Source: a virus (taxonomy: Duplodnaviria; Heunggongvirae; Uroviricota; Caudoviricetes). From it: a DNA stretch of 4,133 bases. Position numbers and translations under genes: made by a program. The notes below the pieces were generated by a model, which was not told the DNA's origin, searched no databases, and was given only the letters and a program-made list of their open reading frames with translations. The stretch's first letter is position 1. Every line of letters starts with the position of its first letter. Location of the stretch: IMG/VR virus record IMGVR_UViG_2645727743_000019, one strand, 5' to 3'. This document shows positions 1 to 4,133 of the stretch, in pieces.

Positions 1-68
1 TAGCTGAACAGGAGGGACAGCTGATAGAAACAGAAGCCACTGGAGCACCTCAAAAACACCATCATACA

Positions 69-314
69 CTAAATCAGTAAGTTGGCAGCATCACCCAAAC
101 TTCCAGGGTACTCTGAAAGTTTGGATTCTAAATAATGTTTACTGGTTGTTAAATTTCTTACTAGCCCTTGTCTATATTCGGCTGTTACATCAACCAATAC
201 CTTTGCCCCACCGCCAGCGTTTACTATTGCACCCAAGTCACTACTGGAAAAAGGGATTCTTAACATTGGGTTTGTAACTTTTGCGTTACTAAACTGTGTA
301 CCCCTTCTGCTCAT
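69..314 (-). CDS. hypothetical small protein (81 aa) overlapping the 3' end of the AAA ATPase gene; candidate partner of the ATPase
   Basis: Open frame of 81 codons with TAG stop at 69-71. The ATG at 314-312 is preceded on the coding strand by AAGGAGTCAGGAGCAT, which holds two Shine-Dalgarno-like GGAG cores. The start lies inside the last 26 nt of the AAA gene in a different frame, an arrangement typical of translational coupling. Composition is AT-rich like the ATPase gene. I recognise no motif in the protein (contains NAGGGAKVLVDV). Confidence 0.45.
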   Translation of the reverse strand: MSRRGTQFSNAKVTNPMLRIPFSSSDLGAIVNAGGGAKVLVDVTAEYRQGLVRNLTTSKHYLESKLSEYPGSLGDAANLLI

Positions 315-1443
315 ATGCTCCTGACTCCTTCAGAATGTTTGAAATTACTCTTGATGTAAGTTTGTACAAATTAGCAAGAACTCTGATAGAAAATAATTTT
401 TTATCTTTAGAACGTAACCAACGAATTTCATCTTCGTAAGTGCTTAAATTTACACCTTCCATAAGCGATTGCGCAAGATACAAACGCCTATACAATTTAT
501 GGTGATTTATCACACTTGCACCTTCAATAACTGCATCCCTACGTGCATCCAAGCTCACCTGTTCAATTATTGCTCCGGATAATCCCTCCGATTTTCTTGA
601 TAAATCACTTAAATCTAGATCGCTACATATCATATTCTTTAAACGATTTTTCCAAATTAACTCTCTCTGATGTATGTCAGGCAGAGGCATTGGAATTCTG
701 AAGCTAAATCGCCTCCAGATTGCAGGATCCAGAAGTTGCTCATGGTTAGTTGAGGCAATAATTACCGTATCCTCTGATGCCGCATCCATATTCTGCAATA
801 GTGAAATGACAACTCGCTGAAGCTCACCTATATCTCTCTCATTACCTCTTGCTCCAGCTAAAGCATCAAATTCGTCTAAAAAAAGCACTGATGGCCTCTG
901 CATTACATAATCGAAAACCTGTCTAAGATTTTTGCTGGTTTGTCCCAATAAACTACTAATCAAAGTATCGCAACGCACTGTAAGAAGTGGAAAATCTAAG
1001 CGGGTAGCGATGTACTTAGATAACATAGTCTTACCTGTTCCTGGCTTTCCATACACGAGCATACGACTCGGCAATGCTGCATCAGCTTTAACAAACTCAT
1101 CATAACGTTGAACATTAGTGATAAACTCTTCAACACGGGTACTGATTGCTGCAGGCAGAAAAATCTCTGAACTGTCTAATTTAGGATAACTGACATCAAC
1201 AGTGTTGAGTCGACTATCAATATCTACCGGTAATGAGCCCAGAGATATCCCACCTCCAGCCCTTTGAGCTCCTGCCAACGCCTGGGGAGCTCTAAGCAAC
1301 CTTTCTCTTATCATTCTGGCTTGCTTGACCTCCCCTTTTTGTTCGAGCTTATCTGCCAGCAACCCAGCATAATTACTAGCCATCGAAGCATTTGCCTTTG
1401 TTGCACCTTCAATGATTTTTAACACTTCTGATAAATAATCCAT
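289..1443 (-). CDS. AAA family ATPase, classic clade, with uncharacterised ~120-aa N-terminal domain
   Basis: 384-aa ORF, ATG at 1443-1441 preceded by GGGAGTGTTGA (SD-like GGGAG). Walker A is GKPGTGKT (aa 132-139, nt 1027-1050) and Walker B is VLFLDEFD (nt 865-885). Sensor-1 is ASTN, followed by a second region of homology AIWRRFSFRIPMPLP with tandem arginines (aa 244-245). A lid-type motif GLSGAII sits near aa 287-293. The RRF..RI...PLP pattern is what I associate with the Vps4/katanin/spastin-like branch of classic AAA proteins. The N-terminal ~120 residues and C-terminal ~90 residues carry no motif I can assign. Confidence 0.9.
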   Translation of the reverse strand: MDYLSEVLKIIEGATKANASMASNYAGLLADKLEQKGEVKQARMIRERLLRAPQALAGAQRAGGGISLGSLPVDIDSRLNTVDVSYPKLDSSEIFLPAAISTRVEEFITNVQRYDEFVKADAALPSRMLVYGKPGTGKTMLSKYIATRLDFPLLTVRCDTLISSLLGQTSKNLRQVFDYVMQRPSVLFLDEFDALAGARGNERDIGELQRVVISLLQNMDAASEDTVIIASTNHEQLLDPAIWRRFSFRIPMPLPDIHQRELIWKNRLKNMICSDLDLSDLSRKSEGLSGAIIEQVSLDARRDAVIEGASVINHHKLYRRLYLAQSLMEGVNLSTYEDEIRWLRSKDKKLFSIRVLANLYKLTSRVISNILKESGAYEQKGYTV

Positions 1444-1640
1444 TCAACACTCCCACAACAAAAAGCCACAGCAATCAAAAAATGAGCACACAGAATCAAA
1501 ATACTCTCTAATCGTAACGCATTTTGAGATTTTTGATACGTTTTTTTGGGATTATGTAACGCCAAATGGTCATTTTGTGTCAGAAAAATAAATCTTAGTA
1601 CCGAGAATATGTAGCTTCCATCCTTCATCGTTCTATTCAT
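1419..1640 (-). CDS. possible small hydrophobic protein (73 aa) bridging the replication module and the AAA ATPase gene; speculative
   Basis: The ATG at 1640-1638 overlaps the TGA stop (1639-1637) of the upstream 143-aa gene as ATGA, with GGAG 7 nt upstream. The frame stays open for 73 codons through the whole AT-rich 'intergenic' region and ends at TAA 1421-1419, inside the first 25 nt of the AAA gene. The predicted product has a hydrophobic stretch (ESILILCAHFLIAVAFCCGSV) that could be a single transmembrane helix. Against it: rare codons, no recognisable domain, and the region could instead be a non-coding promoter leader. Confidence 0.25.
   Translation of the reverse strand: MNRTMKDGSYIFSVLRFIFLTQNDHLALHNPKKTYQKSQNALRLESILILCAHFLIAVAFCCGSVEWIIYQKC
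1444..1636 (-). promoter_or_regulatory. AT-rich leader upstream of the AAA ATPase gene; possible promoter and operator region (alternative to the small-ORF reading)
   Basis: 193 bp between the stop of the 143-aa gene and the AAA start, about 30% G+C. On the coding strand it contains weak sigma70-like elements (CTGACA ... TTACAT/CATAAT) and an A-tract. A short inverted repeat CCAAATG-GT-CATTTTG sits at 1562-1577 (5-bp perfect core). No convincing intrinsic terminator hairpin with a T-run was seen. Promoter calls by eye are unreliable. Confidence 0.2.
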
Positions 1641-2068
1641 CCCTGATCTCCAAGCCTCTCTCGAAAACCATTCTGATAAAACGCCAGCACACGCTGCATA
1701 ACTTCGCTCTTCCGGCACTCGCGACAGATTATGTTCAGACGCCTGTCGTAGCGGCGTATTTCTCCGTCTGGTAATGACCAGATAAGGTCCGGATCAACCA
1801 CAGATGGTTTCTTCACCTTTGCCCTGGATAGTTTTTTGCGGGCATTTTGCCAGTCCTTACGAGCCTGTTCAGACGGGAATAACCCGTAACCAGAGTTGTA
1901 TACATCGCCACTGGCAACCAGCTCTCTGGCGAGAACGCTCATCAGATATCTTGTCGCACCTGTCTTGGCTTCCAGTTGCCGTAACATCTCGCGCCCACTC
2001 CGGCGTACTAGCTCAACAACCTGCCCTTTAATTTTTTCCCGCTCTTCTTGTGTAAATACTTTTGCCAT
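1637..2068 (-). CDS. hypothetical protein (143 aa), basic, prophage replication-region gene of unknown function
   Basis: ATG at 2068-2066 is preceded by GGAGG at 7-nt spacing and lies 15 nt downstream of the TGA stop of the preceding gene. The longer version in the ORF track begins at a TTG (2083) and is less likely. The protein is rich in R/K and has a single CxxC (ICRECRK). Composition matches the replication module. I do not recognise the family. Confidence 0.65.
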   Translation of the reverse strand: MAKVFTQEEREKIKGQVVELVRRSGREMLRQLEAKTGATRYLMSVLARELVASGDVYNSGYGLFPSEQARKDWQNARKKLSRAKVKKPSVVDPDLIWSLPDGEIRRYDRRLNIICRECRKSEVMQRVLAFYQNGFRERLGDQG

Positions 2069-2083
2069 AAGCGCCTCCGGCAA

Positions 2084-2845
2084 TCACTTTTCCGATACAA
2101 CACGGCGGGAAGAATCAGTAATCTGTCGAACAATATCCCGGTGCTTGTTCAGCTCCCGCAGCGCGGCGCAGACTCGCTCCCACTTCTGGACATGATTTTT
2201 CGCCCGACGCAGTTCGCGGTTTGCCATATGCAGTGATGGTAAAACCAGGTCATCCGCTCGCGTTTCAGTAAACGATGGCAGCGACTGCACAATGTCCGCC
2301 ACAGTTTCTGTTTTAATATCTTCCTGTGTTGCAGCCTCCTGTACTGGTAACGCAACACCTGCGGTATGAGGAAAGGCCTTACCATCAGTTTCCGCTACCG
2401 ATGCTGCTTTCGGCTCTGCTGGTAAATTATCGCCCGGTATGCAGTAACGAAATTTACCGCCCTGATTTACGCGAATCAGACGACCTTTGCTGATTGCCAT
2501 TGCCAGCGTTGAAGCCACTTTGCGTGATGTGGTACCAAACAATGTAGCCAGCTCATCAGCCATTTGTGGTCCTCGTTGTTCAATCGTCGCGGTTAAATCG
2601 CACTCTGAGATTTTCGCTACTGTTGCTGTGGTGATTTCTTCCGGCAGTTCTGCCTGCGCTGGCTGTTCCTGCTGAACGTTGTTATCAGCCACACGCCAGG
2701 TGTACGCGCTTTTATCAACAAAACCAGCCTTTTTCAGTTCCCATAGTTCGTTCAGCACTTCTTCACGACTGATATCAAGTCGCGCAGCAAGTTCTATGGA
2801 TGTGGCTTTTCCCATTGCTTTCAGTGCGTCAAAAACAGTCTCCAT
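2084..2845 (-). CDS. prophage protein with two winged-helix (HTH) DNA-binding-like segments; function unknown
   Basis: Preferred start is ATG 2845-2843, preceded by GGGAGA at 8-nt spacing and lying 22 nt after the DnaC-like stop. The alternative ATG at 2896 would overlap the DnaC-like gene by 29 nt and has a weaker SD. The N-terminus ([29 protein letters not shown]) and a second segment ([32 protein letters not shown]) both look like MarR/Lrp-type winged-helix recognition units. The acidic/Q-rich linker and basic C-terminus resemble proteins I recall following dnaC-like genes in Rac-type prophages (DUF1627-like), but this is unverified. Confidence 0.7.
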
Positions 2846-2867
2846 TAAATTTTTCTCCCGGTAAAAA

Positions 2868-3614
2868 TTACTTCGCAATTCCTGGCTGGACGACATTCGG
2901 ACGCCAGCTCTCCCAGTTAAAATTCACCCATAGCCCGCCGTTCATGGTCATGCGATCCATAATCCGCTCGCCGAGCAATGTTTTCATGGCCTCATAGTTC
3001 AGGTTTGTCAGCATCCCCACGCTGCGCATCGACGCTGTCCGGCGATCAACAATCTGGTGCAGTACCACCTGCTCGTTTTTCGTCTCGCGCTGAATGCCAA
3101 TTTCATCAAGAACCAGCAGATCCACTTCGCACAGTTCCCGCAAAAATTTTTCGCCTGACTGCCCATCGTCATAGCTGGCGTGGAGGGCACTCATAACATC
3201 AGCCACGGTAACCACAATCACTGTCTGACCGTCTTTCAGCAGGCGATTCCCGATAGCTGCTGCTAAGTGGTTCTTCCCGGTACCAGGTTTTCCGCTAAAC
3301 GCGAAATTTGTGCATCCGGTCATCAGTTCATCAGCGATAGATTTCGCCTGGCTCAACGCGTATCGCTGACCGTCGTTCTGCACCTGGTAATTCGCAAACG
3401 AGCATTTACGGTGCAACGGCTGGATGCCTGAGCGATTCAGAATTTTTTCCACCCGCAACTGGCGATTCAGGCGGTTGATCTCCTCGCTACGTTTCTGGCC
3501 TTCAGCAAGTTGCCACTCGTGCCACTCCGCTACCGTTCTGAATGGGGCGGTTACATGTGGCGGAGCCAGTCTTCGGATACGTTCAAGAACGCCGCCTGCC
3601 GCAATGTTTTTCAT
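2868..3614 (-). CDS. dnaC: DnaC-like replicative helicase loader (prophage paralogue of DnaC)
   Basis: 248-aa ORF with Walker [18 protein letters not shown] (nt 3270-3293), Walker [10 protein letters not shown] and [11 protein letters not shown]. These stretches are near-identical to what I recall of E. coli DnaC ([30 protein letters not shown]). The N-terminus ([17 protein letters not shown]) also resembles DnaC. The ATG at 3614 lies 6 nt after the TGA of the upstream DnaT-like gene with AGGGGG as SD, as in a dnaT-dnaC type operon. Confidence 0.9.
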
Positions 3615-3620
3615 GACACG

Positions 3621-4133
3621 TCACCCCCTGAATCCCGGCGGTATTTCAGTGTCCGGTTCAGAAATGTGATTCACGCAACGCTGCGCAGGCAAACGCCCCA
3701 GGCGGATAACCAGTTCATCCCATTTTTCCCGGAGTTTTGCCGGACTCATGATGTTTTTTACCCAGAACGAATCCCGCTGGAGACGCCCAAACATTTCACA
3801 AATTTGTCTGTGAGTTCTGCCATCCAGCATCCGCATTGTGCGAACGTCATTGGCCCATGCTGTCCAGTTGGGTTCTTTCGGTCTAGTGATCTCGCCATCA
3901 TAGCTGGCCGCCTGCTCGTAAAGACTCACGATTCGTCCCCAGATCCACTGTGCGCACACCAAATCTTCCTGACTTCCCCACTGGCGTTTTTTCGCACTGA
4001 ACACAACCGCGTCAGGGTGTCGGGTTAAAAAATCCTGTTCAGCCGTCTGCGGGTCCGGTTGCGAAGCGTCCGGACAAGAAGATCTTTTATCTGACGGATC
4101 AGGTTTTAATACTGACGGATCGGGGTCAATCAT
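3621..4133 (-). CDS. phage replication protein with DnaT-like (primosomal protein I) C-terminal domain; possibly 5'-truncated by the window edge
   Basis: Open frame running from the window edge to TGA 3623-3621. The C-terminus (ISEPDTEIPPGFRG) closely matches the C-terminal end of E. coli DnaT as I recall it (...SEPDSQIPPGFRG). It sits immediately upstream of, and is coupled to, the DnaC-like gene. The frame begins with ATG exactly at 4133-4131, so the true start may be this codon or may lie beyond the window. Confidence 0.8.
   Translation of the reverse strand: MIDPDPSVLKPDPSDKRSSCPDASQPDPQTAEQDFLTRHPDAVVFSAKKRQWGSQEDLVCAQWIWGRIVSLYEQAASYDGEITRPKEPNWTAWANDVRTMRMLDGRTHRQICEMFGRLQRDSFWVKNIMSPAKLREKWDELVIRLGRLPAQRCVNHISEPDTEIPPGFRG

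Follow-up and report, generated by a model that had tools for sequence, protein, structure and literature searches.

An IS1-truncated copy of the IetAS anti-phage module in a prophage of Escherichia coli 401140, most likely defence-dead

Results

The low-G+C block beside the prophage replication genes of E. coli 401140 is very probably one copy of the known two-gene module IetAS, inactivated by the insertion sequence IS1. The module pairs IetA, an AAA+ ATPase, with IetS, a subtilisin-like S8 protease, and is carried here as cargo of a Rac/Qin-like prophage. IS1 has inserted after codon 74 of ietS, which leaves a 74-residue stub followed by seven IS1-derived residues, without the protease domain, and ietA is untouched by the element. 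In our view the copy has most likely lost its defence function and retains only an orphan, antitoxin-type ATPase, because protease activity is reported to be critical for IetAS-type defence and the protease domain is missing in the window; the published requirement comes from other ietAS and ietHAS alleles, not from the allele in the window.

The window (the whole stretch of DNA analysed, 4,133 bases) is the entire short-read contig JHRM01000155.1 of assembly GCA_001265465.1, broken at the IS1 repeat. Its source, strain 401140, is listed as an EPEC/ETEC hybrid isolate of phylogroup A (PMC10332235; supplement of PMC5471185). Every gene in the window lies on the minus strand, and the order from right to left is the 3' part of a replication-initiator-like HTH gene, ydaV, DUF1627, DUF977, a gap of 193 bases, ietA and an 81-codon ORF. 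The conserved replication module of the Rac/Qin-like lambdoid prophage (1673..4133, minus strand) comprises all but the end of DUF977, together with DUF1627, ydaV (DnaC/IstB-like) and the partial initiator-like gene. It matched the Pfam families DUF977, DUF1627 and IstB_IS21, with further backing from a syntenic RefSeq locus and the annotation of phage vB_EcoS-683R6. The initial annotation had remarked on a G+C content much lower than in these replication genes, and a composition count over the window bears this out (0.396 at 96–1672 vs. 0.516 at 1673–4133). No Rfam family matched any part of the window at E ≤ 1.

The ATPase gene and its family

The largest gene of the block, an intact 384-residue ORF at 1443..289 (minus strand), encodes a classic-clade AAA+ ATPase that, judged by its profile matches, is IetA; the block is accordingly read as a copy of a named module and so already known. 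The PADLOC IetA profile matched residues 1–374 (8.9e-143), and the NCBIfam equivalog NF042959, “anti-phage ATPase IteA”, matched residues 1–367 at 526.6 bits, against a cut-off of 510 bits. The names IteA and IteS used by NCBI transpose the letters of the published IetA and IetS. Window positions 93–1700 were matched at 99.8–99.9% by 78 complete E. coli chromosomes, whose annotation names the two genes iteA/iteS. The ietA DNA is identical in all 78, and in a base-by-base comparison ietA showed zero differences from the copy in one of these genomes. The block had earlier been left without a match to any named defence or toxin-antitoxin family, a view superseded by these PADLOC and NCBIfam equivalog matches to IetAS and by the published defence and toxin-antitoxin data on the module.

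IetAS was first described as a protease-toxin/ATPase-antitoxin pair stabilising pTiC58 (Yamamoto et al. 2009, as cited in PMC13069673) and was presented as an anti-phage system by Gao et al. 2020 (likewise as cited in PMC13069673). For the anti-phage function, protease activity is reported as critical and the mechanism as otherwise unknown, and attempts to build constructs carrying a mutated ietA failed (PMC13069673). In Bacillus, a phage protein triggers an IetAS that works through abortive infection (bioRxiv 10.1101/2022.08.27.505566), and the ietAS of E. coli ECOR52, a typically prophage-borne system, has been tested experimentally (bioRxiv 10.1101/2022.08.21.504612). According to this literature, IetS of an intact system is the toxic effector and IetA an antitoxin-like partner restraining it, until a phage-encoded trigger frees the toxicity of IetS and abortive infection follows.

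The catalytic motifs of the ATPase, previously described as intact, are indeed so. Walker A (GKPGTGKT, residues 132–139, with K138), Walker B (LFLDEFD, 187–193), sensor-1 (N233) and the arginine pair R244/R245 each have their counterpart in an alignment with the p97 D2 motifs and are invariant across 44 homologues. The nearest solved structures are p97/CDC48 D2 (1e-53), and there is no solved structure of IetA itself. In the structural model, three N-terminal helices (residues 1–62, low model confidence) precede an AAA core (residues ~99–307) and a confidently modelled, four-helix HTH-like C-terminal domain (residues ~314–372), which carries the family-wide pattern FSLRxLAxLYxLSTRxITNILKE and resembles DnaA domain IV, sigma region 4 and LuxR-type HTH domains. 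Pfam searches at E ≤ 10 on residues 1–98 and 308–384 gave no match. The N-terminal domain, at first called unassigned, falls within the span of the IetA family model (residues 1–367) and hence is assigned at the family level. Pore loop 1 reads SSLLGQTS (residues 163–170, window 934–957), is almost invariant in the family and contains no aromatic residue; substrate-threading AAA+ unfoldases typically have an aromatic residue in this loop.

An IS1 element within ietS

The 81-residue ORF at 314..69 (minus strand) overlaps the 3' end of ietA by 26 nt and is preceded by AAGGAG/AGGAG. It is identical to IetS of E. coli TUM14664 through residue 74 and then continues with DAANLLI and a stop codon. The PADLOC IetS profile (1.3e-10) and the NCBIfam IteS model (1.2e-9) matched the stub at model positions 1–60 of 747 only. 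Where the locus is intact, ietA is followed by a gene for a 754-residue S8 peptidase (1037.8 bits to NCBIfam IteS), with its Peptidase_S8 domain at residues 268–544 and catalytic motifs DTG273/HGT303/GTS503. That domain lies past the break and is absent from the window, in which IetS is represented by residues 1–74 only. A full-length S8 protease IetS is present in 76 of the 78 sister loci, and the 26-nt ietA/ietS overlap, on the same strand and in the same order, is identical in six of the loci compared (L001, L005 and L015–L018). By these comparisons the 81-residue ORF is the IS1-truncated stub of the protease gene ietS, made up of codons 1–74 of 754 (96..314, minus strand) and an end supplied by IS1. 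The initial annotation had proposed a translationally coupled small gene; the overlap and the Shine-Dalgarno-like motif stand, and the status of a gene of its own does not, since the ORF consists of IetS codons 1–74 plus seven codons and a stop derived from IS1. The suggestion that the system may continue beyond coordinate 1 was well placed, in that intact copies have a 754-residue ietS running past that point.

Positions 1–95 (minus strand) are the transposase-proximal end of IS1, with 95/95 identity to the known IS1 end. A search with this stretch hit 72,780 places in 4,976 E. coli genomes, which carry the annotation IS1 family transposase, and the transposase CDS of an annotated IS1B copy begins, on the minus strand, at the base equivalent to window position 40. 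The insA start codon accordingly lies at position 40 (minus strand) and reads out of the window, so that IS1 is co-oriented with ietA and ietS and its transposase-proximal end abuts ietS codon 74. Both the terminal inverted repeat and the adjacent insA start expected of IS1 are present. Only from position 93 onward does the window resemble intact ietAS loci; bases 93–95 are common to the IS1 end and the target, which makes the breakpoint ambiguous by three bases. One IS1 end is in the window and the contig stops inside the element. The other 2.0 kb of ietS may follow on the far side of IS1, as after a simple insertion, or may have been deleted. The earlier reading of this DNA overlooked the IS1 end, which makes the ietAS copy most likely non-functional.

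The exact junction was found in none of 5,426 complete E. coli genomes and had no match in a collection of species-representative genomes. The same chimeric ORF occurs on contigs of at least five other sequencing runs, four of which map exactly onto the window and stop 27–30 bases into IS1, as a break at a repeat would. An assembly artefact or chimera at the junction was considered and is ruled out, given that at least five runs, assembled independently, show the same junction.

Expression of ietA and lesions in ietS

Five Logan contigs (L007–L011; runs SRR1184186–SRR1186293; window 66..1753) cover ietA and the IS1 junction and have ragged upstream ends. Four of them start at 1753, 1702, 1491 and 1376 and are only 1.2–1.7 kb each, compared with a 4.1-kb contig in the genome assembly. 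Such lengths and starts fit assembled transcripts from RNA-seq of strain 401140, a run type that we assume, and on this assumption the contigs point to expression of ietA. Transcription would probably come from the gene's own conserved leader and from read-through.

Two further copies carry lesions in ietS beside an identical, intact ietA, namely a 1-base deletion at ietS nt 831 in E. coli B19695 and a nonsense change, T1671A, in E. coli 28Eco12, each of which could be a sequencing error. Three independent lesions in ietS and none in ietA were thus present among 79 copies. Such lesions beside an intact ietA fit the loss of a costly effector; with ietS twice the length of ietA, however, a ratio of 3:0 lacks significance.

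A non-coding leader upstream of ietA

A possible hydrophobic protein of 73 residues had been proposed at the 5' end of the cassette (ATG ORF at 1640..1419, minus strand, its ATG overlapping the DUF977 stop codon as ATGA). We compared the region with the Citrobacter locus, whose IetA is 91% identical and in which similarity upstream of ietA spans only the last ~125 bases. Over 93 ungapped bases in the frame of the 73-residue ORF there were 0 synonymous and 11 non-synonymous codon changes, distributed 3/6/7 by codon position and so without a third-position bias, compared with 122 synonymous and 36 non-synonymous changes (24/19/137 by codon position) in ietA. Across four loci, frame-breaking indels of 8, 5 and 1 nt separate a conserved core from the ietA ATG. 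The ORF is called as a gene neither by PGAP nor in loci L015–L018, and it had no match in NCBIfam, nor in Pfam or PADLOC when searched as the 99-residue extended frame that contains it. On this comparative evidence the 73-residue ORF is not a gene and overlies a conserved non-coding leader of ietAS (1444..1636, minus strand, G+C 0.35). In phage vB_EcoS-683R6 (ON470595; L012 5804–7155) the ORF is labelled “kinase (fragment)” and IetA is labelled “cell division protein FtsH”, both of which look like annotation errors.

The leader core (~1506–1546) is kept in four loci whose flanks are otherwise unrelated. Short repeats occur at 1474–1537, including a direct repeat of ~21–22 nt and A-run/T-run inverted repeats 46–52 nt apart; AT-rich sequence readily yields repeats of this sort. 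A simple scan for sigma-70 promoters and terminators detected no promoter in the leader. The repeat-bearing core (window 1474–1546) is probably a promoter/operator region.

A cargo slot after DUF977

DUF977 was found in 4,165 of the 5,426 genomes, and most of these match only from query base 37–38 on, that is, 36 bases short of the 3' end of the gene. Similarity to cassette-less prophages resumes at window position 1673 (position 7581 of locus L001). Sequence comparison therefore places the upstream edge of the cargo at about 1672/1673, and the last 12 codons of DUF977 (1637..1672, minus strand) belong to the variable segment and travel with the cassette. This pattern suggests that the recombination by which cargo is exchanged takes place within the 3' end of DUF977.

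The contents of the slot differ between related prophages. In E. coli HBUT-L (L002 1587–4790) it holds NsnA/B/C instead of ietAS (PADLOC 1e-89 to 1e-123), which we take to be the Menshen system, and in other related prophages it holds small hypothetical genes and hokD. The IetA-based search for related loci returned a single locus, from Citrobacter, and L015–L018 were added by exact-protein matches. The ietAS genes follow DUF977 in the Citrobacter prophage and in another prophage, and in Kosakonia they lie within an integrase-bearing island. Phage vB_EcoS-683R6 has an identical IetA together with a gene for an S8 peptidase. Comparison of these loci indicates that the slot after DUF977 is a true cargo hotspot and an exchange point for defence cargo. 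The comparison of related prophages that the initial annotation called for thus reveals a variable slot (ietAS, NsnABC, or small genes with hokD), and its expectation of defence-type cargo just after the replication genes is confirmed by a horizontally acquired IetAS cassette.

Directly after the DUF977 gene, ietAS was observed in three prophage backgrounds (window 1637–1672; L005 2955–3323; L017 3055–3315). A functional link between DUF977 and ietAS was considered and rejected, given DUF977 in 4,165 genomes vs. ietAS in 78, and the ietAS of Kosakonia without a DUF977 neighbour.

Discussion

Readings other than an inactivated IetAS copy were weighed against the same evidence. The orphan ietA could have been kept because it is functional alone, for example as an anti-addiction immunity gene that neutralises IetS from incoming phages or plasmids bearing ietAS, or because its HTH-like domain lets it regulate genes by binding DNA. 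An ietA that is intact, identical to functional alleles and probably transcribed would fit this, as would the three lesions confined to ietS among 79 copies and the resemblance of the C-terminal domain to DnaA domain IV, sigma region 4 and LuxR-type HTH domains. However, the copy is 99.9–100% identical to intact alleles, which points to a recent insertion that left no time for ietA to decay, and with an ietS twice the length of ietA, chance alone would give a 3:0 ratio in about 30% of cases. We regard this as improbable. Slightly less improbable, yet still unlikely, is a more speculative proposal in which the C-terminal HTH, undescribed so far, would bind the repeat-bearing leader of its own operon, as an antitoxin-style autoregulator, or phage DNA, and in which the orphan ietA would persist as an anti-addiction or immunity gene against incoming IetS.

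The system could alternatively still be active if the distal part of ietS (residues ~75–754, with the whole S8 domain) survives on the far side of IS1 and an outward promoter, either IS1-borne or hybrid, drives it to yield an N-terminally truncated but catalytic protease. All catalytic residues are indeed encoded downstream of the break, and IS elements can drive neighbouring genes. Yet the window and every related contig end without sequence past the IS1 end, the IetS family models cover the N-terminal 74 residues that such a product would lack, and an unregulated toxin would be counter-selected, which makes this highly improbable. The chance that the block is instead an uncharacterised three-gene system, made up of a 73-residue membrane protein, an AAA ATPase and an 81-residue coupled protein, is negligible. 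All three ORFs exist, some gene callers call all three, and phage ON470595 gives the 73-residue ORF a “kinase (fragment)” label, but the ATPase is an IetA equivalog, the 81-residue ORF is an IS1 chimera of IetS, and the 73-residue ORF shows 0 synonymous to 11 non-synonymous changes, frame-breaking indels and no family match. The three-gene accessory architecture put forward in the initial annotation is refuted by the equivalog match, the IS1–IetS chimera and the non-coding leader, and the reading that we prefer is an IetAS copy inactivated by IS1.

The main value of this result is a correction, as a scan of gene content would count this strain among the IetA-positive ones, or credit it with a “novel three-gene system”, though the effector gene is destroyed. 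The case also shows that calls of defence systems need a check for IS breaks at contig ends, and that a mobile element can switch off a costly abortive-infection module and spare its antitoxin-like partner. For the mechanism of IetAS, the HTH-like C-terminal domain of IetA, the non-aromatic pore loop and the conserved, repeat-bearing leader are offered as leads only.

Comparison with known systems

The element at the edge of the window resembles IS1 in its 95 identical terminal bases and in a transposase start at the expected place, and differs in that the window holds only one of its ends. With IetAS the block shares the IetA equivalog, an ietS that comes after ietA and overlaps it by 26 nt, its carriage by a mobile element and an S8 partner in all sister loci; it departs from IetAS in that ietS of this copy is cut after codon 74 by IS1 and the effector domain is absent. 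IetAS also has a variant with an added SNF2-type helicase, ietHAS (Liu-DS4; PMC13069673). The IetA and IetS components are common to both, whereas no helicase gene lies beside ietA in the window, where the upstream neighbour is the prophage DUF977 gene. Compared with other classic-clade AAA+ ATPases (FtsH, p97/CDC48 D2, Vps4, spastin and PAN), IetA differs in that its one AAA module is flanked by three N-terminal helices of its own and a C-terminal HTH-like domain, in its non-aromatic pore loop 1, and in having its S8 protease partner encoded by a separate gene instead of a fused protease domain.
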